DNA of 40,994 nucleotides from the sequence record SRR31156797_3164; one strand, written 5' to 3'. Positions 731 through 8,765 of this stretch are shown piece after piece. The notes beneath the pieces are model-generated. The model was not told where the DNA came from, searched no databases, and saw nothing but the letters and a program-made list of their open reading frames with translations. The position numbers and the translations under genes were made by a program. The stretch's first letter is position 1. Each line of letters starts with the position of its first letter.

Positions 731-2830
731 CTAGAGTTGTTCATCAACACCAGCTTCTGTAAAAGACGCCATATCACACATCACCTTTGCTGCCAGCTCC
801 GCTACCTGCATAGTCATGGCTGCTCCGGTCCCCTCTCCAAGCCGCATATCCATGTCCAGCACAGGCTCCAGGCCCATGAACGCAAGTGCTGCTCCCTGGC
901 CCTGTTCAACTGATTTATGGCCGGCAACAAGGTAGCCGGCAACATCGGGACAAAGCAGATAAGCAAGCAGCCCTGCCGCCGTTGAAATAATACCATCCAA
1001 GACAACACAGGATCCATTACCTGCGGCAGCTAGCACTGCTCCACAAATACCACCGAGCTCAAACCCGCCGACCTTGGAGAGGATATCAAGCCCGTTCTCT
1101 GGGTCGGGTCGATGCAACGAAAGCGCTTTCTCAAGCACCTCAATCTTTCGCTGCAGCCCTTCATTATCAACCCCGGTCCCTCTACCTGCAAGCTTTGCAG
1201 GCGCTATTCCGGTAACTGCACTGATTACGGCGGTGGCAACGGTCGTATTACCGATCCCCATTTCCCCCAGACCGACAATCTCAGTCTTTGATGCAGCATT
1301 GCCACTGCCAATCACCTGCGCCCCACATTCGATAGACAACAGAGCTTCATCCTTGCTCATGGCCTTCTCTATGGCAAAATTGCGTGTACCGGCTGCAACC
1401 TTTTTATCTATCAATAAGGGATGGGGAGCAAAAGAACCCTTCACACCCATATCGACCACCGTCAAATCGATATCATAAAAATCACAAAACACATTGATTG
1501 CAGCTCCACCAGCTAAAAAATTCTCAACCATCTGCACTGTCACTTTGGCCGGATATGCAGAGACACCTTCCTCGACGATACCGTGATCACCTGCAAAAAC
1601 AACCATTCTCCGCCGCTGTATCGTGGGCTGTAAGGAATGCTGGATCACACTTAAAGTAATTGCCAGGGGCTCTATCCGCCCCAGAGCGCCGAGTGGTTTG
1701 GTCTTAAGATCGATCTTCTTCTCTGCTGCCCGACGCACATCGTCGGCAACAGGCACAACTTTTTCTACTAATGATTTCAGCCGACCTGACACAACCGCAC
1801 CAGGACGTCTAATAGCCTTGCCCGATTCAGCAGTAACAGGCTTATGGCTAACCGGCACTGACTGGCTGAAATCAATGATATATTTAAATGATCCACCGCT
1901 GAGCACCTCGGGCATCAGAGATGGCACCTCGTCCGGCCAAACGATGCCTTCAACCAGGTTATCGAGTTGCCCTTGGTGCGAGGCACAAAATGCAGCGGCC
2001 TCAACAACATGCTCACGCCGTGGGCCGTAGGAACCGAAGACTTCGAGCTCTTTGTAGTGGATCAAATTGAGGAGGTTAAACCCTATTTCATCATTTTTAC
2101 GGACACCGGAAAAATAGGCAAACTGCCCTCCTTTGCGTAGTTTCGTCAGACCGAGACTAAAGGCAGCGCTACTATCGCAGGCATTAATACCGCAATCAAA
2201 ATCGCTTTCCACTGTCTCCTTGCAGATCTGTATGGACGTATTTTCCACAAACGCCTGGGCCTTGGCTATTTTTTCCGCACTCCACTCAACCACCACCGGT
2301 TCCGCACCCTGAGACTCAGCCACAAGGGCAGCCAAAAGACCAAGGACTCCTCCGCCATATATAATAACCTTGGAACCCCGGCCAATGGACAAGTTTGCAA
2401 ACCCATTGAAAATACAGGCAACAGGTTCGGCAAAACAATAAAGGTGGGGCGACTCTATCACCTCGACCGGAACCAGACTTGCCTTTGACACCACCACTGT
2501 ATCGGCAAAGCCACCATCGCGATGAAACCCGGTAATACGCATGGCATCGCATAAATTTTCTCGGCCGTGTTCACAATACCAGCATCTGCCGCAGGCCTCC
2601 CCCGGCCAAACGGTGTACCAGTTGCCGGTCTCCTCTTCAATGCCAACCAGTTCATGACCAAGCACTCTGGGAAGGACAAGGTCACGATGCCCCTGTTCCC
2701 ACATTTTTGCATCCGTACGGCAGATAGCACAGTAGCAGACCTTGAGTCGTACATTGAAGCTATCGCATGGGTAAACTATATCAGCATGCTCCGAATGGAG
2801 CTTTCCTGGGCCGAGAAGAGAAAGTTTCAT
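731..2830 (-). CDS. cobT: Fusion: N-terminal Zn-dependent MDR alcohol/polyol dehydrogenase plus C-terminal nicotinate-nucleotide:dimethylbenzimidazole phosphoribosyltransferase (CobT)
   Basis: N-half (~1868-2830): CRTD, GHE, CxxCxxCx7C, GGGVLG. C-half (~731-1783): KTKPLGALGRIE, FAGDHG, GEMGIGNTT, GGFELG, LDG, MRLGEGTGA. One uninterrupted 699-aa frame. Confidence 0.92.
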   Translation of the reverse strand: MKLSLLGPGKLHSEHADIVYPCDSFNVRLKVCYCAICRTDAKMWEQGHRDLVLPRVLGHELVGIEEETGNWYTVWPGEACGRCWYCEHGRENLCDAMRITGFHRDGGFADTVVVSKASLVPVEVIESPHLYCFAEPVACIFNGFANLSIGRGSKVIIYGGGVLGLLAALVAESQGAEPVVVEWSAEKIAKAQAFVENTSIQICKETVESDFDCGINACDSSAAFSLGLTKLRKGGQFAYFSGVRKNDEIGFNLLNLIHYKELEVFGSYGPRREHVVEAAAFCASHQGQLDNLVEGIVWPDEVPSLMPEVLSGGSFKYIIDFSQSVPVSHKPVTAESGKAIRRPGAVVSGRLKSLVEKVVPVADDVRRAAEKKIDLKTKPLGALGRIEPLAITLSVIQHSLQPTIQRRRMVVFAGDHGIVEEGVSAYPAKVTVQMVENFLAGGAAINVFCDFYDIDLTVVDMGVKGSFAPHPLLIDKKVAAGTRNFAIEKAMSKDEALLSIECGAQVIGSGNAASKTEIVGLGEMGIGNTTVATAVISAVTGIAPAKLAGRGTGVDNEGLQRKIEVLEKALSLHRPDPENGLDILSKVGGFELGGICGAVLAAAGNGSCVVLDGIISTAAGLLAYLLCPDVAGYLVAGHKSVEQGQGAALAFMGLEPVLDMDMRLGEGTGAAMTMQVAELAAKVMCDMASFTEAGVDEQL

Positions 2831-3054
2831 TTTTTACTGCCTGACATTTCGGTAAATGGTTTTTCGGTAAGGGTCAAAATAAATAGAGCAGCATCATCAA
2901 TGCCATCGTTTTGCAGCTGTCGAAGCATTTGTTTTGCCGTCTCTAAAGAATCCATGGGATAAACACTAGCCTTTTGCAGGGAACAGCGCGTGTACTCGAT
3001 ATCGGTAAAACGAAAATAATCGGTTCCTGATTTAAGTATAAAAAGCTGCTGCAT
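2827..3054 (-). CDS. 75-aa hypothetical protein, translationally coupled to the MDR-CobT gene
   Basis: ATG at 3054 (MQQLFILKSG) 2 nt after the upstream stop; its TGA overlaps the next ATG (ATGA, 2827-2830); motif KASVYP. Confidence 0.75.
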   Translation of the reverse strand: MQQLFILKSGTDYFRFTDIEYTRCSLQKASVYPMDSLETAKQMLRQLQNDGIDDAALFILTLTEKPFTEMSGSKK

Positions 3055-3056
3055 GA

Positions 3057-4163
3057 CTATACCTTCTGTATAAGGGCATTCAATTTCGCCAAACCCTGAT
3101 CCGGATTCCGGTTTTGCGCAGTGACCCACCTGGTTAAAACTTCAATCGGCTGACCGTCTTTCATACATTCCCTCGCCATAGCTACCCCTTGATCGAGAGA
3201 CGAGACCTTACCGGTTACCTCAAAGAGCAGACCACTGTTGAGCAGCACCGCATCCCTGCGGGCAGCATCACTTTTATCGTGCAGCAACTCTACCATTTTC
3301 AGGGCTGCCTGATCTAAGTCGGGGTCAGCGGCAAGGGCTTCTGGCCGATGAGTCTTTACCCCGCATTCCTCGGGGGTAAAAGAAAACTCACTGATTTTTC
3401 CGTCAACAAGCCGTGCACCGTATGTGATACCGCACACAGAGGCTTCATCCATCCCCTTGCTGCTCCCATCAATCCCACCGTACACAACAATGGCCTTTGT
3501 ATAGCCTATAGACTGCATAACTTTAGCGACCGGCATAATCAATTCTTTTGCATACACACCGCGTACGGCCATCTTTGGCAAGGCTGGGTTTGCCAGTGAG
3601 GCAGCTATATTTAAGGGGGAACCAAAATAAATTTGTGATAAAATTCTTCCCAAAGCCATGGGGTGAACCTTAGGACTCATACCATTGAACAACCCGACCC
3701 CGACCTTATCTATTGCCTCCGCCACGTAGGCAACATCGCACTCAACGTCCACCCCCAGTGCCTCAACAATATCGACAGTCCCACAAGAGGAGGTAATACC
3801 TCTTGCACCATGGCGGGCTACAGTTATCCCCCCCGAGGCTGCAACCAGGGAGGCAGCAGTGCTGATATTAAAGGTCTTATAGGTATCCATACCAGTCCCG
3901 CAATTATCAACAACAGGCCCTTTCCCGTTAAGAGAGACCTTGGTTGTGTCCAGTTCATAGATAGCCTTCCACCCGCCGGCAACTTCTTCGGCTGTCTCCC
4001 CTTTTGCGGTCAACGCAGCAAGAAAAGCTCCCTGCTGCATTTCACTTATATCATTATTTAAAATATGCCAAAATGCATGGTACGCCTCTTCCGCGTTCAA
4101 GTTCTCACCACGGATCAGACCCGTAACAATCTGTCCAAAATCTTTATTTAAGGCAATATCCAT
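3057..4163 (-). CDS. TrpD-fold (anthranilate phosphoribosyltransferase-like) protein with divergent acceptor site
   Basis: GAFLAALTAKGETAEE, DNCGTGMD, TFNISTA, RHGARG, GMDE; start chosen at ATG 4163 behind AAAGGAG; no other trp genes nearby. Confidence 0.85.
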   Translation of the reverse strand: MDIALNKDFGQIVTGLIRGENLNAEEAYHAFWHILNNDISEMQQGAFLAALTAKGETAEEVAGGWKAIYELDTTKVSLNGKGPVVDNCGTGMDTYKTFNISTAASLVAASGGITVARHGARGITSSCGTVDIVEALGVDVECDVAYVAEAIDKVGVGLFNGMSPKVHPMALGRILSQIYFGSPLNIAASLANPALPKMAVRGVYAKELIMPVAKVMQSIGYTKAIVVYGGIDGSSKGMDEASVCGITYGARLVDGKISEFSFTPEECGVKTHRPEALAADPDLDQAALKMVELLHDKSDAARRDAVLLNSGLLFEVTGKVSSLDQGVAMARECMKDGQPIEVLTRWVTAQNRNPDQGLAKLNALIQKV

Positions 4164-4349
4164 AACCAGTTCTCCTTTCTGGTTGTGACCTGCTGCATCT
4201 CTCTGCAACTTCCCCCTTTACCTCACAGAGCAAAGCGGGAACAGAGGGCGCAAGGACTATTTAGCAGAATGTGGCTTTAATGTTATACAAGAATGATAAA
4301 ACACAGAAATCCAGTGGTTGGCTGTGATCACAGATAATAGTTATCGGTG

Positions 4350-4551
4350 CATTCAGGCAGGCTTTCTGACTTACAAAGTATACTGCAGAGGCAGCCTTCC
4401 CAGAGGGCAAGGCCTCCAGTGACTCTCTTAACCGAGATGCAAACCCGTATTGCACGGGAAACAGCTTCTACAGACTTTGAATACAGCAATGACTGGTTTG
4501 TGGCGGATTCCCACCGCCTTTCCTTTTACCATACGGTAAAGCACCTGAATG
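4350..4551 (-). promoter_or_regulatory. Cobalamin (B12) riboswitch, long AdoCbl-type architecture
   Basis: Minus strand reads CATTCAGGTGC...AAAAGGAAAGGCGGTGGGAATCCGCCAC...GCTGTA...GTCACTGG...CTGGGAAGGC...AAGTCAGAAAGCCTGCCTGAATG: conserved blocks in order, closed by P1 CATTCAGG/CCTGAATG, upstream of a cobT operon. Confidence 0.9.
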
Positions 4552-4556
4552 AAGCT

Positions 4557-4584
4557 ACTATACAAAAACTCCCTTATTTATCAA
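4557..4584 (-). promoter_or_regulatory. Putative sigma70 promoter of the riboswitch operon
   Basis: TTGATA-16 nt-TATAGT ending 5 nt before riboswitch P1. Confidence 0.55.
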
Positions 4585-4646
4585 CGGATATAGAAGGCTT
4601 TAAGTGGAGAAGCAGTGCTGAGAGATTGATGCTGAAAGGATAATCT

Positions 4647-4727
4647 AAAAAAGAGGCACCCTGACCAGGGGTGCTGGGCGAAAGGAGGGCCAGGGTGCTG
4701 TCTTCAATAAAGGAGAGATGAAGACAT
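4647..4727 (-). ncRNA. Candidate small RNA with CU-rich anti-SD loops and intrinsic terminator
   Basis: Stems TGTCTTCA/TGAAGACA and GCACCCTG/CAGGGTGC, U6 tail, promoter directly upstream. Confidence 0.6.
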
Positions 4728-4729
4728 AG

Positions 4730-4760
4730 ATTATAATAATTATTCTCGCCCCCTTGTCAA
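4730..4760 (-). promoter_or_regulatory. sigma70 promoter of the candidate sRNA
   Basis: Perfect TTGACA (4755-4760), then TATTAT at 16 nt or TATAAT at 19 nt spacing. Confidence 0.6.
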
Positions 4761-4798
4761 CGTACCAGTAGAAAATTATATTCACGCGCCTATGGCAT

Positions 4799-4845
4799 TT
4801 TTTATGTCAGTCAGCTATTATGCGTTATTCTAAAAAGAAACAATG
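4799..4845 (+). promoter_or_regulatory. Possible ModE-type operator(s) upstream of modE
   Basis: CGTTATTCT-AAAA-AGAAACAATG imperfect dyad and adjacent TTATGTCA, resembling CGTTAT..ATAACG ModE boxes. Confidence 0.35.
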
Positions 4846-4868
4846 AGATTACAGAGGACACAAATACG

Positions 4869-5675
4869 TTGAAAAAAATTACCCAGGTTATCTCGTCAGC
4901 GATGCTGCTTCACCAAATGAGCGACACAACAGATACAGAAGATCCGGTCATTACTCTGCTGCAGGCTATTGCCACAAACGGCTCCATTAACAAAGCGGCA
5001 AAATCGATTGGACTTAGCTACAAAGCTACCTGGGAGAGAATTGAAACTATCAATAATCTCTCCCCCAGGCCACTCATCAGCCGCCAAACCGGAGGCAGTG
5101 GTGGCGGCGGGACTGTTCTCACCGAAGAAGGCCAAACCTTTTTAGCCAGAGCTTCCCTTTTTCGAGTTCAGCTGCAAAAATTCATCAATTTCTTTCACGA
5201 TACACCAGAAGAAGCATATGCCATGCTTAGAACGCTCAGGGGGATGGAAATGAAACTCAGTGCCCGCAACGTGTGGCTCGGCAATGTTACGCACATTGAA
5301 CAAGGGGTTGTCAATAGCGTCGTCACCATTGGCCTGAAAGGAAAGGACATTATTGTTTCCAACATTACAGATAACTCCGTGAAGCGGCTAGGACTTGAGG
5401 TTGACAAAGAAGTTTACGCTATTGTTAAAGCTTCCTCTGTAATGCTCAGCCTGGATGTTGTCCCGGGAAAGATTTCTGCACGAAATGTCCTCCGGGGAAC
5501 AATCAATCGTATTGCACCTGGAGCAGTAAACGATGAGGTCATCATCGACATTGCTAATGGTAATACGGTTACATCCATACTGACCAGTGACAGTGTCCGA
5601 AACCTTGGCCTTACAAGTGGAACGGAAGTGTCTGCCATTATTAAGGCATCGAGTGTTTTACTCGCAATTCCATAG
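4869..5675 (+). CDS. modE: Molybdate-responsive regulator ModE (wHTH plus two TOBE/Mop domains)
   Basis: GSINKAAKSIGLSYKATW, GGSGGGGTVLT, two SARN...IVKASSV repeats; exact start uncertain (TTG 4869 or a later ATG). Confidence 0.9.
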   Translation: MKKITQVISSAMLLHQMSDTTDTEDPVITLLQAIATNGSINKAAKSIGLSYKATWERIETINNLSPRPLISRQTGGSGGGGTVLTEEGQTFLARASLFRVQLQKFINFFHDTPEEAYAMLRTLRGMEMKLSARNVWLGNVTHIEQGVVNSVVTIGLKGKDIIVSNITDNSVKRLGLEVDKEVYAIVKASSVMLSLDVVPGKISARNVLRGTINRIAPGAVNDEVIIDIANGNTVTSILTSDSVRNLGLTSGTEVSAIIKASSVLLAIP

Positions 5676-5754
5676 CACACCAAAAAACTTTCGCTTATTG
5701 CCAACAAGAAAAACCAATCTGTGAGAACAAAAAAATCAGAGAAGAGAGACGCTC

Positions 5755-6501
5755 ATGACGCTCGATGTCAAGCTTCACAAACAACTCAAATTTTATAATT
5801 TAGAGGTCTCTCTCAGCTGTTCCAAGGGAACCCTCACTGCAATTGTCGGTCCTTCAGGGGCTGGAAAAAGTACCCTGATACGAATCATATCCGGCTTAGA
5901 ACGTCCAGACAAAGGCACTATTTTTTTTGACGATAGATGCTGGAATGATTGTGCGATGAATATACATGTAACTCCTCAAGACCGCAGAGTCAGTATGGTT
6001 TTCCAGGAATACACCTTATTTCCGCATCTCACAGTTCGCCAAAATATCGTTTTTGGAGCGGCAAACGATAAAGGTATTGATACATTGCTCGATCAATTCA
6101 AAATCAGCCATATTGCACATCGTAGGCCTACGCATATTTCAGGTGGAGAACGCCAGCGGGCTGCTTTCTGTCAGGCCCTTGCCCGTGATCCGGTTTTACT
6201 GCTGCTTGACGAACCTTTTTCAGCTCTGGACAGAGCAACACGGGGATCCCTTCGTGAAAAACTCAGAGAACTGAAGCAGGATCTGAATATCCCCATAGTT
6301 CACATCACTCACGACCTGGAAGAGGCATATGACCTTGCTGACAACATCTATGTCATGGAAAGCGGTAAAGCCTCTCCGCAATGGCTGGAACAGTATCAAC
6401 CGCCTAGAGCCTCTCCTGCCAAAGAATCTCTCCCCCGCAGTAAGAAGTGGCAACATCCGGAAACAATTGTTCCTCATTTGTCTCCCATGAGTATTTTTTA
6501 A
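5755..6501 (+). CDS. modC: Molybdate ABC transporter ATPase (short, no TOBE domain)
   Basis: Walker A GPSGAGKS, FQEYTLFPHL, ISGGERQR, LLLDEPFSALD, THD; mod context. Confidence 0.88.
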   Translation: MTLDVKLHKQLKFYNLEVSLSCSKGTLTAIVGPSGAGKSTLIRIISGLERPDKGTIFFDDRCWNDCAMNIHVTPQDRRVSMVFQEYTLFPHLTVRQNIVFGAANDKGIDTLLDQFKISHIAHRRPTHISGGERQRAAFCQALARDPVLLLLDEPFSALDRATRGSLREKLRELKQDLNIPIVHITHDLEEAYDLADNIYVMESGKASPQWLEQYQPPRASPAKESLPRSKKWQHPETIVPHLSPMSIF

Positions 6502-6528
6502 TCACTAAAACATAAAGGAGAATACGTA

Positions 6529-7251
6529 ATGCGCCTTCAACAGATATGGTTATTTATTGTGCTGCTCATGTTTACGCCCGTTGCAGTGCAAGCCAAAACA
6601 GTCCTCGCATCAGGCGCAGGATACCGTTCCTTTGTTGACGACCTTGCAGATGCTTATACCCTTGAAACCGGGAACGAAATTGAACGTATCTTTGGAAATA
6701 TGGCACGTATTGTTGCCCAGGCACGTTCCAGTGGAACCGTAGATTTGCTGCTGGGAGACATTGTTTTTCTGGAACAGGCAAAGCTTCCTTTTATAGCAAA
6801 AGAGGTTGTGGGCAACGGCAGGCTTGTTGCTGCATTTCCAAAGGGGAGCAGTTTTCACGACATACGAGATCTGCTGGCACCAGAGGTAAACAGGATAGCT
6901 ATTCCTGATACTACCAGGGCTATCTATGGTAAAGCTGCCCTGCAGTATATCCGGAACAAAGGGGTGTACGATGACGTGCAGCCGAAACTTATGGTCGTTT
7001 CCACAGTGCCCCAGGCGGCATCATATGTAATTGCCGGCGAGGTTGATTTTGCATTAATCAACCTCACTCATGCCCAAAAAATCCAGAAAAATATCGGCGG
7101 TTACACCATAATTGATGAAAAAGCCTACTCACCCATAAAAATTATCATAGGACAACTGCAAACAAAATCAGGATCTTTTGAGTCCAGTACATTTCTTGCG
7201 TTTCTGCAGTCAGATACTGCTCAAAAAATCAGAGCCCGTCACGGTATGTAA
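6529..7251 (+). CDS. modA: Molybdate/tungstate ABC periplasmic binding protein
   Basis: Signal peptide (VQA-K), IAIPD..AIYGKAA, TVPQ, YSPI; lies between modC and modB. Confidence 0.85.
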   Translation: MRLQQIWLFIVLLMFTPVAVQAKTVLASGAGYRSFVDDLADAYTLETGNEIERIFGNMARIVAQARSSGTVDLLLGDIVFLEQAKLPFIAKEVVGNGRLVAAFPKGSSFHDIRDLLAPEVNRIAIPDTTRAIYGKAALQYIRNKGVYDDVQPKLMVVSTVPQAASYVIAGEVDFALINLTHAQKIQKNIGGYTIIDEKAYSPIKIIIGQLQTKSGSFESSTFLAFLQSDTAQKIRARHGM

Positions 7252-7259
7252 AATCCGCT

Positions 7260-7931
7260 ATGGATCTGATTACCTTTTTCGCGACCAATGTACCCATGCA
7301 CCCGTTGATACTTTCAGGACAGGTGCTGCTTGCTTCAACGCTTATTCAACTGTTCCTGAGTGTTCCTCTGGCCTGCTGGCTCGCCCGATCACACGGCATA
7401 ATGAATACCATTATTGACACCGCCGTTACCCTGCCCCTCGTGTTCCCGCCGGTGGCAATGGGGTTTGCACTGCTTATGTTGCTTGGCCGCCATGGTCCGC
7501 TTGGACAACTTTTTGGCGAAAGCATAATTTTCAGTTTTCCTGCTCTTGTTATTGCCGCAGTAACTGCCGGCTTGCCGCTGGCAGTTAAACCAATCCAGGC
7601 AGCATTATGTTCTCCAGAAGCTACCAAACTTACAGAGGTGGCGGCAGTGCTCGGAAAATCGAGAACAACCATCTTCCTCCGCGTTCTTCTTCCCTATGCA
7701 AAACGAAGCATTATTGCAGGAGTACTGCTTGCCGCAGGAAGATCTCTTGGTGAAGTAGGAATGACGCTGATGCTTGGCGGCAATGTCATAGGCAGAACAA
7801 ATACGGTTTCGCTTGAAATATATAATGCTGTATTTAACGGTGAATTAGAAAAAGCAGGAGTACTCACGGTGCTTGTTGGATGTGTATCAATCTGTATGTT
7901 CATCGTTTTAAAAAAGATATCCGACATATAA
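7260..7931 (+). CDS. modB: Molybdate ABC permease
   Basis: LPLVFPPVAMGF, RSLGEVGMTLMLGGN..GRTNT, hydrophobic helices. Confidence 0.9.
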   Translation: MDLITFFATNVPMHPLILSGQVLLASTLIQLFLSVPLACWLARSHGIMNTIIDTAVTLPLVFPPVAMGFALLMLLGRHGPLGQLFGESIIFSFPALVIAAVTAGLPLAVKPIQAALCSPEATKLTEVAAVLGKSRTTIFLRVLLPYAKRSIIAGVLLAAGRSLGEVGMTLMLGGNVIGRTNTVSLEIYNAVFNGELEKAGVLTVLVGCVSICMFIVLKKISDI

Positions 7932-7944
7932 CCCTTAAAAAACA

Positions 7945-7980
7945 AGGGTCTCCTGGAAAAGGAATTTTTCAGGAGACCCT
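7945..7980. terminator. Strong hairpin after modB (terminator or mRNA-stabilising stem)
   Basis: AGGGTCTCCTGGAAAA...TTTTTCAGGAGACCCT. Confidence 0.5.
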
Positions 7981-8033
7981 GTAATCTATATCCCCATAGA
8001 CACATGGGCGACGATACCAACAGGAATGAGACA

Positions 8034-8765
8034 ATGAAAAATTCAATTTTAGATACAATACAGGCAAAGGCCCATTCTCTTTGGGAAAAAGAAGGCATAC
8101 TTGATGAAAACATCCACATCAATGCACGTACACTGAGCGTGGAAGAGGCGATTGGTAACCCGGAAGGTGATGACTTCCCCCTGCAGCGTGGAAAAGAGAA
8201 GCTGATGGAGGCTACATTTCGAAATGCTCGCGGTCAGGCATTCACAGACCGTTTTGGAAATTTCAGTTCCCCATTACGTGAAATTGTAGAGATGGATCTT
8301 GATAATAATTTTCGTCGGGCAATTTTTGTATCCGCATTCAATGCTGTTCAGCGTAGTCTCAATCAAGCCCCGAACACTATCCATTGCCGCGACGAGGGGC
8401 CAGCTCTTTGTGCACCGCAGTTTGCAAAACAGGTCATGAAAACCTATGGAAAAGTCCGTATTGCCATGATCGGTTATCAGCCAAAAATGATAGAAGCCTT
8501 TGCCGAAAAATTTGAACTTCGGGTAGTTGATCTTGATCCCGACAATATAGGCAGTCAAAAATGCGGACTCACCATCGAAGGTCCAGCAGATACCGAAGAT
8601 GCGATTAACGACGCTGAGCTATTAGTTGTTACGGGTTCTACTCTTGTCAACGATACGCTGGGTGATTTTTTACTGGAAAATAAACCTACTCTTTTTTTCG
8701 GAACAACCGTAGCCGCCGCAGCTGAACTTATGGGGTGGTCCCGTTTTTGTTGCGAAAGCAATTAA
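8034..8765 (+). CDS. DUF364-like Rossmann-fold protein
   Basis: AIGNP..DDFPL..GKE, GQAFTD, IGYQP, VTGSTLVN, FFGTT; start 8034 or 8004. Confidence 0.7.
   Translation: MKNSILDTIQAKAHSLWEKEGILDENIHINARTLSVEEAIGNPEGDDFPLQRGKEKLMEATFRNARGQAFTDRFGNFSSPLREIVEMDLDNNFRRAIFVSAFNAVQRSLNQAPNTIHCRDEGPALCAPQFAKQVMKTYGKVRIAMIGYQPKMIEAFAEKFELRVVDLDPDNIGSQKCGLTIEGPADTEDAINDAELLVVTGSTLVNDTLGDFLLENKPTLFFGTTVAAAAELMGWSRFCCESN

Follow-up and report, generated by a model that had tools for sequence, protein, structure and literature searches.

The locus lies within a window of 40,994 nt, this being the whole stretch of DNA analysed (sequence record SRR31156797_3164), and consists of a cobalamin riboswitch and three genes, all on the minus strand (Table 1). 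The original prediction placed the operon at positions 731 to 4,551 and described its genes as tightly coupled, and reading of both junctions agrees with this. The stop codon TAG of the first gene (3059-3057) is separated from the ATG of the second (3054) by only the two nucleotides TC, and the second and third genes overlap in an ATGA at 2830-2827. The third gene (2830..731, 699 aa) encodes a Zn-MDR::CobT fusion, as had been proposed, with ADH_N and ADH_zinc_N domains followed by a DBI_PRT/CobT domain. The reported absence of BluB and Bza genes from the window also holds: no ThiC/Bza- or BluB-type gene was present among the 27 larger open reading frames scanned outside the operon, taken from 32 listed frames of at least 150 aa, of which the remaining five all overlap larger frames on the opposite strand. 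Statements below about the rest of the host genome rest on the genomes of its relatives.

Table 1. Features of the operon and its leader, in order from the promoter-like site.
Feature	Position	Strand	Remarks
Promoter-like site TTGATA, 16 nt, TATAGT	4557..4584	-	10/12 consensus positions
Cobalamin riboswitch aptamer, RF00174	4339..4563	-	58.6 bits, full model
Expression platform and leader	4164..4338	-	without terminator-like site; Shine-Dalgarno GGAGA 8 nt before ATG
TrpD-family phosphoribosyltransferase paralogue, 368 aa, 'GTGMD/RHGAR' subfamily	3057..4163	-	domains, motifs, tree
Conserved 75-aa protein, without family	2827..3054	-	between both enzyme genes
Zn-dependent MDR dehydrogenase domain of fusion, about residues 1-339	1814..2830	-	ADH_N and ADH_zinc_N
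Linker (about residues 320-355) and C-terminal CobT domain of fusion	731..1813	-	DBI_PRT, TIGR03160

A complete cobalamin riboswitch had been proposed to precede the genes, and comparison with Rfam confirms it: the match is untruncated, covers model positions 1-189 of 189, and reaches 58.6 bits, where the gathering score is 31.5 (E 3.8e-12). The promoter-like site lies just upstream of this match and overlaps its first bases, but is a consensus match only, in a region that gave 8 such sites where 5.4 were expected from shuffled sequence. The leader folds no better than its shuffles (z = -0.37), and a search for terminator-like hairpins with a U-tract gave none between 4338 and 4164, which makes control by this riboswitch at translation initiation more likely than control by termination.

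The three genes occur as a unit in other genomes. We distinguish loci with the TrpD-like gene, the small gene and the MDR::CobT fusion (class A), loci with a riboswitch followed by separate MDR and TrpD-like genes (class B), and loci with a sister MDR/TrpD-like pair (class C). The synteny of which a survey had been proposed is conserved, in that the three genes lie together in nine of ten loci that have the fusion and enough upstream sequence, and the riboswitch occupies the homologous place in the leader at or above the gathering score in 7/9 class-A loci, with another at 28.3 bits; it is also present in both class-B loci. The genes flanking the cassette are not conserved. The MDR and TrpD-like pair without CobT occurs in the two class-B loci, with a riboswitch, and in four class-C loci. 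One class-B locus (G314) has cbiJ and a corrin methylase gene upstream and reads riboswitch-MDR-TrpD-like-CbiZ (169 bits)-BtuB, while in the other an acyltransferase-family gene follows the pair. The class-C pairs had no riboswitch in the three testable loci and no cob neighbours, being found instead near genes for a Na/Pi symporter, SmpB and HrcA, and the chemistry of the pair may thus have no intrinsic connection with cobamides. In one genome (G211) the fusion is separated from the TrpD-like gene by more than 3 Mb, and both lack a riboswitch. The cassette was found in three orders of Desulfobacterota, with class-A records titled Desulfamplus, Desulfobacteraceae, Desulfobacula and Geopsychrobacteraceae in addition to relatives of Desulfogranum. 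Carriers are rare, with approximately 11 verified among 401 sampled genomes of the phylum, 7/201 in a sample of the order and 0/301 in Chloroflexota. Taken across these arrangements, gene order supports the view that the dehydrogenase and the TrpD-like enzyme are obligate partners linked to cobamide genes.

The first gene, for which a longer alternative start (TTG at 4208) also exists, encodes a protein that matches PF02885 and PF00591, the two-domain fold families that it has in common with TrpD (EC 2.4.2.18; TIGR01245; PDB 4yi7, 9ucw, 1zyk). Its score against the TIGR01245 trpD model, 252.6 bits, is above the equivalog-domain cut-off of 199.05, and its best PDB match is the AnPRT structure 4yi7 (150 bits). 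The original prediction had asked whether this gene is the only trpD of its genome, and in the relatives it is not: 10/10 related genomes have, in addition to the TrpD-like copy, a separate canonical trpD (356-433 bits), which in the two loci inspected lies within trpE-G-D-C/F (G001) and trpD-C-F (G002). In contrast to these tryptophan-pathway copies, the TrpD-like gene lies outside the trp operon and is paired with the MDR gene, and its product is only 31-36% identical to canonical TrpD of the relatives, with a 5-residue insert and a C-terminal extension; in the tree it forms a deep clade separate from canonical TrpD. In TrpD structures, GTGGD and KHGN(R) are the motifs of the PRPP and anthranilate sites. 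The paralogue retains GTGxD, NIST and GMDE, but in all 12 class-A and class-B sequences aligned GTGGD has become GTGMD, KHGNR has become RHGAR and SSKxGSAD has become TSxCGTVD, whereas GTGGD and KHGNR are kept in four canonical TrpDs from the same genomes. These differences support identification of the gene as a specialised paralogue rather than the housekeeping trpD, and its product still looks PRPP/Mg-dependent while lacking the anthranilate-contacting residues.

The dehydrogenase part of the fusion (ADH_N, PF08240, and ADH_zinc_N, PF00107; residues 26-283) has the features of a zinc-containing MDR enzyme. The ligands of the structural site (C80, C83, C86, C94) and, of the catalytic site, H59, E60 and E135 are invariant among the fusions, C37 of the latter site is nearly so, and all align with ligand positions of 3gfb and 4ej6; the Rossmann motif GGGVLG (GGGVxG) and E182 are also conserved. 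The best PDB match is 4ej6 (101 bits), with threonine dehydrogenases next. Like the polyol/threonine-dehydrogenase branch of the Zn-MDR superfamily (PDB 4ej6, 3gfb), the domain thus has both zinc sites and the Rossmann motif, but its stretch from the GHE motif to the structural-zinc loop is shorter, and it is either joined to CobT in one protein or found in a pair with a TrpD-like enzyme. Among named families L-threonine 3-dehydrogenase and polyol dehydrogenases are nearest, but the domain falls far short of all equivalog cut-offs (best 78 bits against 450). Assignment as L-threonine 3-dehydrogenase (TIGR00692 / NF003808) was rejected at 74.7 bits against 380 and 73.7 against 458.

Beyond a poorly conserved linker, the C-terminal part of the fusion is a full-length CobT domain (DBI_PRT/CobT, PF02277, residues 360-695, DBI_PRT 399.8 bits), which over residues 363-695 scores 411 bits with TIGR03160, above the equivalog cut-off of 319.3. 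Its LGEGTGA motif is intact; 14 fusions share RLGEGTGAA without change, opposite RLGEGSGAA of 4kqj in the alignment, and the catalytic glutamate of LGEG(T/S)GA corresponds to E317 of the Salmonella enzyme. The domain resembles the known CobT and ArsAB proteins (PDB 1wx1, 1d0s, 4hdk), with best PDB matches to 1wx1 (242 bits) and ArsA (240.7 bits), but differs from them in its fused N-terminal dehydrogenase and in its phylogeny, since the fused CobT domains form one long-branched clade of their own (100/100 support), to which the standalone CobTs from these genomes do not belong. The ArsAB phenolic-base system was considered and set aside, as there is a single CobT domain here and no tandem ArsA/ArsB pair, ArsA being just one among the best PDB matches. 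The 75-aa protein encoded between the two enzyme genes, in all nine class-A loci, matched no Pfam or NCBIfam family. Its AF2 model has a pLDDT of 90.3 and a PDB fold search gave nothing at E<=0.001. Its homologues comprise 203 cluster representatives at E<=0.001, with lengths of 38-135 aa among the 150 listed.

The carriers look like de novo cobamide producers, as judged from gene content, with CbiD in 14/15 and CobT-family genes in 15/15. The operon itself invites comparison with bza operons, which reportedly have the order B12 riboswitch - bzaF or bzaAB - cobT - bzaCDE and serve anaerobic lower-ligand synthesis. Both are found in strict anaerobes and both are short operons in which a cobalamin riboswitch is combined with a CobT gene and with enzymes assumed to supply the CobT substrate. 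However, no ThiC-family 5-hydroxybenzimidazole synthase gene (bzaF/bzaAB) lies in or beside the operon, and in place of the ThiC-family radical-SAM gene and the methyltransferases the cassette has a TrpD-fold transferase, the 75-aa protein and the Zn-MDR dehydrogenase fused to CobT. The anti-correlation with bzaF, bzaAB or bluB that was expected in the original prediction was not seen: 6/10 carrier genomes also hold a separate riboswitch-controlled ThiC paralogue (bzaF-like), in five of them beside a standalone cobT. Replacement of BzaF/BzaAB/BluB by the cassette is accordingly not supported; the cassette adds to the known anaerobic route rather than being an alternative to it, and in carriers that already have bzaF-like and cobT genes no missing step demands it. 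A separate bzaF-cobT operon is also present in most of the related carrier genomes examined.

We suggest that the locus is a putative accessory, cobamide-repressed module concerned with either the lower ligand or the nucleotide loop in cobamide (B12-family) biosynthesis, a reading to which we give a probability of roughly 0.55; the cassette probably performs a step, so far undescribed, in the making of the lower part of B12-type cofactors. The riboswitch would permit expression of the operon under cobamide shortage, probably at translation initiation. The core of the module would be the obligate pair of a TrpD-derived phosphoribosyltransferase and a Zn/NAD-type MDR dehydrogenase of the polyol/threonine-dehydrogenase kind, the latter fused in this lineage to a dedicated, divergent CobT, with the 75-aa protein encoded between the enzyme genes. 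The TrpD-like enzyme may join PRPP to a nitrogen nucleophile other than anthranilate, such as a base or base precursor, to give a beta-ribotide; the dehydrogenase domain could then oxidise or reduce the sugar or the base of this intermediate, and the fused CobT domain would pass an alpha-ribotide to CobS. The product would be a nucleotide-loop block unlike the 5-hydroxybenzimidazole ribotide of the separate bzaF-cobT operon. Only tentatively do we extend this to the more specific idea that the pair and its dedicated CobT constitute a PRPP-dependent, oxygen-independent route to a new cobamide building block. If this were true, the block could be a lower base that is synthesised or modified while attached to a beta-ribotide as a handle, or an alpha-ribotide whose sugar is altered, and carriers would produce, in addition to the 5-hydroxybenzimidazole type, a second cobamide that has so far gone unrecognised.

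The pair might instead serve salvage or remodelling, processing imported corrinoids or environmental base conjugates to rebuild a preferred cobamide; for example, a base could be freed or converted from a beta-ribotide or riboside, with fused CobT, or CbiZ and BtuB, finishing the remodelling. The G314 operon contains CbiZ and BtuB, CbiZ-family genes are present in 12/15 carrier genomes, the TrpD fold is common to nucleoside and AMP phosphorylases, to which the paralogue gives weak NCBIfam matches, and an extra module fits salvage where a de novo bzaF-like base route already exists. We nevertheless consider this explanation unlikely, as the CbiZ/BtuB link is found in only one of the two class-B loci, the paralogue scores as TrpD and far below that score with every phosphorylase model, and class-A operons contain no transporter genes.

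It is also conceivable that the TrpD-like enzyme regenerates the beta-ribotide donor of CobT, either NaMN from nicotinate and PRPP or another, such that base and PRPP would yield alpha-ribotide and PPi overall and NAD synthesis would be spared. TrpD-type enzymes invert PRPP to give beta-N-ribotides, CobT requires a beta-ribotide donor and releases nicotinate, and nicotinate, like anthranilate, is an aromatic carboxylate; loss of the KHGN asparagine would fit a reshaped acceptor pocket. However, a PncB-family nicotinate phosphoribosyltransferase is present in 4/5 carriers tested (208-261 bits in three, only 38.5 in G165), cobamide flux is tiny in comparison with NAD flux, and the obligately paired dehydrogenase would be left without a role, making this quite doubtful. 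Supply of the linker appears more doubtful still: here the threonine-dehydrogenase-like domain would provide the nucleotide loop with (R)-1-amino-2-propanol or a similar amino alcohol, threonine being oxidised and decarboxylated and the product re-reduced, and the TrpD-like enzyme would act on the resulting amine. This is in keeping with the nearest named families of the MDR domain, with the link to CbiZ, which releases aminopropanol, and with the many cobamide producers in which, to our knowledge, no L-threonine kinase is identifiable, but the domain falls well short of the threonine dehydrogenase cut-off, its fusion partner is CobT rather than CbiB or CobD, and we know of no role for an N-phosphoribosylated amino alcohol. 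That these are ordinary adjacent genes, a second tryptophan-pathway anthranilate phosphoribosyltransferase beside a CobT fused by chance to a generic alcohol dehydrogenase, is very improbable given the canonical trpD of the relatives, the changed acceptor- and PRPP-site motifs, and linkage to the MDR gene in three arrangements and to B12 riboswitches in two of the three, even though the gene passes the TIGR01245 cut-off, is called anthranilate phosphoribosyltransferase by all sources, and in G001 and G211 follows aroK, with aroQ nearby and without a riboswitch.

Which organisms and enzymes are able to use a particular cobamide depends on the structure of its lower ligand, and we know of few lower-ligand routes, namely BluB, BzaAB/BzaF with BzaCDE, and ArsAB for activation of phenolic bases. 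Our literature search found no description of the cassette. Two enzyme families never before linked to the pathway are now tied to CobT by independent lines of evidence, namely gene fusion, gene order in three arrangements and B12 riboswitches. In databases the parts are named "TrpD", "CobT" and "iditol dehydrogenase", and genome-based predictions of tryptophan and cobamide metabolism will therefore miscount them. The source names attached to close homologues include Desulfogranum marinum, D. mediterraneum, Desulforhopalus singaporensis, Desulfopila, Desulfobacula phenolica and Desulfospira joergensenii, and as cultured strains are among the carriers the role of the cassette is directly testable.

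Three genes of the cassette, encoding a paralogue of the anthranilate PRT TrpD, a 75-aa protein and a Zn-dependent dehydrogenase (MDR) physically fused to what reads as an intact but divergent CobT, are predicted to be regulated by a cobamide sensor. The cobalamin riboswitch that the original prediction had placed ahead of these genes was borne out by Infernal and was the only Rfam family in the window to exceed its gathering score, and the gene junctions also read as claimed, with a TAG stop separated by the two nucleotides TC from the next ATG and with an ATGA overlap at the second junction. No terminator-like hairpin was found between the aptamer and the start codon and the leader RNA folds no better than its shuffles; we infer that control by the riboswitch would be translational. 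A strong, terminator-like hairpin with a U-tract does lie upstream of the riboswitch (4656-4674 (-)), preceded by a promoter-like site (11/12, 4760..4733) with no ORF seen between the two; there could be a short transcript here, or the hairpin could terminate the divergent cluster as well, acting in both directions. The neighbours of the cassette are unrelated genes: the divergent cluster looks like a molybdate/tungstate-type uptake system, and the recognisable ones among the remaining larger ORFs scanned in the window are housekeeping genes.

Features of the cassette and of the divergent gene cluster in the window
Feature	Coordinates	Strand	Basis or remark
Gene 1, TrpD-like, 368 aa	4163..3057	-	ATG 8 nt past GGAGA
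Gene 2, small gene, 75 aa	3054..2827	-	ORF
Gene 3, MDR::CobT fusion, 699 aa	2830..731	-	ORF, domains
Cobalamin riboswitch RF00174	4563..4339	-	Infernal, full model, 58.6 bits against a gathering score of 31.5, E 3.8e-12
Sigma-70-like site, TTGATA, 16 nt, TATAGT	4584..4557	-	Sequence match
ModE-like regulator (HTH and two TOBE), ABC ATPase, SBP_bac_11 periplasmic binding protein, permease, DUF364 protein	4869-8765	+	Divergent from the riboswitch operon

The product of gene 1 carries both TrpD domains (TIGR01245, 252.6 bits against a cut-off of 199.05), and among solved structures it is closest to anthranilate PRTs (about 150 bits). Such paralogues, scoring about 229-260 bits where intact, accompany a canonical trpD (356-433 bits) in all ten related genomes tested, and in both loci inspected the canonical gene lies with trpE/G/C/F. 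Alignment with the canonical TrpDs of the related genomes showed that the paralogue retains NIST and GMDE, while GTGGD has become GTGMD, KHGNR has become RHGAR and SSKxGSAD has become TSxCGTVD; other sequence stands in place of LGIRS.FN, GMDE follows an insert of five residues, and the C-terminus is extended. If these motifs bind PRPP and anthranilate in the way that TrpD structures suggest, this is predicted to be an enzyme with an altered acceptor site in which the PRPP and Mg motifs are kept. Gene 2 encodes a real and conserved protein, since its model is confident (pLDDT 90.3; strands, one helix, one strand) and a search of 1.84 billion proteins yields 203 cluster representatives at E<=0.001, of which the 150 listed span 38-135 aa. 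Searches of Pfam/NCBIfam-type families gave no family for it, a fold search of the PDB gave no match at E<=0.001, and the Atlas returned unnamed clusters only, all below 0.9; a prediction of its complex with the MDR domain and the product of gene 1, made without supplied alignments, scored 0.02, which speaks neither for nor against an interaction.

Residues 1 to about 320 of the fusion form the MDR domain, apparently an active Zn/NAD dehydrogenase; a comparison of 14 fusions shows conservation of both zinc sites, of GGGVLG and of an acidic residue that follows strand 2. It scores far under every named equivalog, the best being scyllo-inosose 3-dehydrogenase (78 bits) and threonine dehydrogenase (75 bits). 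A poorly conserved linker leads to a complete CobT domain (411 bits against a cut-off of 319.3) that keeps the catalytic LGEGTGA motif and has eight clade-specific substitutions. At S80, Q88 and L175, pocket positions defined by variants of the Salmonella CobT, the fused domain has Y, M and M; these residues were rejected as a clue to specificity, as Thermus CobT and ArsA are the same at S80 and Q88, the two legible positions.

Full-length cluster representatives of the fusion number more than 120 (55-89% identity), of which the named ones (Desulfogranum, Desulforhopalus, Desulfopila and Desulfomarina) are all labelled CobT, and among species-representative genomes the fusion occurs in those with the record titles Desulfamplus, Desulfobacteraceae, Desulfobacula and Geopsychrobacteraceae and in further genomes. 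Ten loci combined the fusion with enough upstream DNA to be compared (the window and contigs L001, L002, L003, L007, L010, L117, L118, L119 and L120), and in nine a TrpD-like gene (55-69% identity) stands directly upstream with the small gene between, which upholds the conserved synteny that had been expected. The exception is genome G211, where the TrpD-like gene is more than 3 Mb from the fusion. No other flanking genes are shared among the loci of this three-gene type, and seven of the nine have a riboswitch that exceeds the gathering score in front of the TrpD-like gene, with one more at 28.3 bits. None was found before that gene in L001, where aroQ and aroK lie directly upstream. This is one of two such cases, in the sister genomes G001 and G211 (L001 5039-6170 (+); L128 8530-10883), where a shikimate kinase gene leads directly into the TrpD-like gene, a class II dehydroquinase gene adjoins and there is no riboswitch. 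The kinase gene of G211 is probably the housekeeping aroK, since it is the only SKI-family gene of that genome, and the adjacency may hint at a shikimate-derived acceptor or may be chance. Genome G094 has its TrpD-like gene in two frames with an internal stop (L119 6831-7915 (-)), beside an intact riboswitch, small gene and fusion; either the copy is decaying or the assembly is at fault.

Pairing of the dehydrogenase with the TrpD-like enzyme extends beyond the fusion. With a standalone homologue of the dehydrogenase as query, 15 of 401 sampled genomes of the phylum matched at E<=1e-45, and in all five newly fetched loci a TrpD-like gene follows the dehydrogenase gene; the two form an obligate core pair. 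In genomes G314 and G157 the TrpD-like enzyme is of the GTGMD/RHGAR type (45% identity) and a cobalamin riboswitch precedes the pair; the operon of G314 sits behind cbiJ and a corrin methylase gene, and its further genes encode CbiZ (169 bits) and a BtuB-type receptor. Four others (G400, G269, G395 and G397) pair the dehydrogenase with a sister-type enzyme (GTGSD/KKGAR, 30% identity), with no riboswitch in the three testable loci and no cob neighbours. The tree gives a long branch each, with 100/99 support, to the canonical TrpDs, to the GTGMD type and to the sister type. Relatives of the standalone dehydrogenase number 875 at E<=1e-40, including ones from Geobacter, Desulfuromonadales, Syntrophorhabdaceae and Thermodesulfovibrionales, which their sources name L-iditol 2-dehydrogenase or alcohol dehydrogenase.

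The cassette represents a second CobT system, and its fused CobT domains group in a single clade (100/100, branch length 1.12) that excludes the standalone CobTs encoded by these genomes. A second ThiC-family gene with its own cobalamin riboswitch is present in six of ten carriers (G001, G002, G003, G004, G165 and G211), and in five of the six this bzaF-like gene directly adjoins a standalone cobT, which is the layout of a bzaF-cobT operon. No ThiC-family gene was present in G005 or G150, a partial one in G400 and a single copy in G094; three of these four genomes are many-contig drafts of 1.9-3.9 Mb that may be incomplete. BluB exceeded its cut-off in none of five genomes tested. The bzaF-like gene occurs in six of the ten carriers, and the predicted anti-correlation with bzaF and bluB therefore fails. 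In G165, the closest genome, an FMN riboswitch (116 bits, L127 7308-7452 (-)) lies about 2.3 kb downstream of the bzaF-like gene and cobT on the same strand.

CbiD was found in 14 of 15 carrier genomes and CbiZ in 12; the cassette co-occurs with complete cobamide pathways, and its carriers look like de novo cobamide producers. At a probability of roughly 55%, we favour a role in which the pair produces, modifies or releases a compound, different from the bzaF product, that CobT turns into the alpha-ribotide of the nucleotide loop. One specific order, in which the TrpD-like enzyme would transfer PRPP, the dehydrogenase would carry out a redox reaction and CobT would then form the alpha-ribotide, is about half as probable. 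The CbiZ/BtuB context would instead suit a pair that acts in salvage or remodelling, and supply of the amino-alcohol linker is a further rival. Regeneration of the beta-ribotide donor of CobT by nicotinate recycling is weakened by the PncB-family genes of four of five carriers tested, and would leave no role for the dehydrogenase. Mere adjacency of ordinary genes is contradicted by the conserved linkage, the core pairing, the separate canonical trpD and the cassette's own CobT clade. CbiZ domains lie in open frames of about 675-726 aa in six carriers (G165, G002, G003, G005, G094 and G397), where it is apparently joined to a further domain.

The module is uncommon and patchily distributed, with carriers verified in about 11 of the 401 sampled phylum genomes and presence in 7 of 201 genomes of the closest genome's order; neither it nor the MDR subfamily was found in 301 sampled Chloroflexota genomes, nor the subfamily in five assorted genomes with standalone CobT. 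The survey of the order includes the fusion carriers G807, G793, G800 and G866, and that of the phylum also gave weak MDR matches in G299, G032, G349 and G383. Riboswitch-controlled CobT operons are of a known kind, and what differs here is the enzyme families, which are not known to have been linked to the cobamide pathway. Our full-text literature search, outside which lie the supplementary tables of PMC8620254, a possible gene list, found no description of the module. The legend of Fig. 4 in that paper, on the population genomics of Antarctic Chlorobium, places 'trpD' and 'DH' beside cbiZ without comment, in variable regions that also contain btuB and cobalamin riboswitches, and therefore the riboswitch-MDR-TrpD-like-CbiZ arrangement may reach green sulphur bacteria too. 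The Dehalococcoidia contig L035 carries two cobalamin riboswitches (116 and 51 bits; 2964-5879 (+)), the first before a CobT-like match whose resemblance to the MDR spans 86 residues only; these N-terminal residues are 35% identical to the MDR start, and the match may be a remnant or a different fusion.
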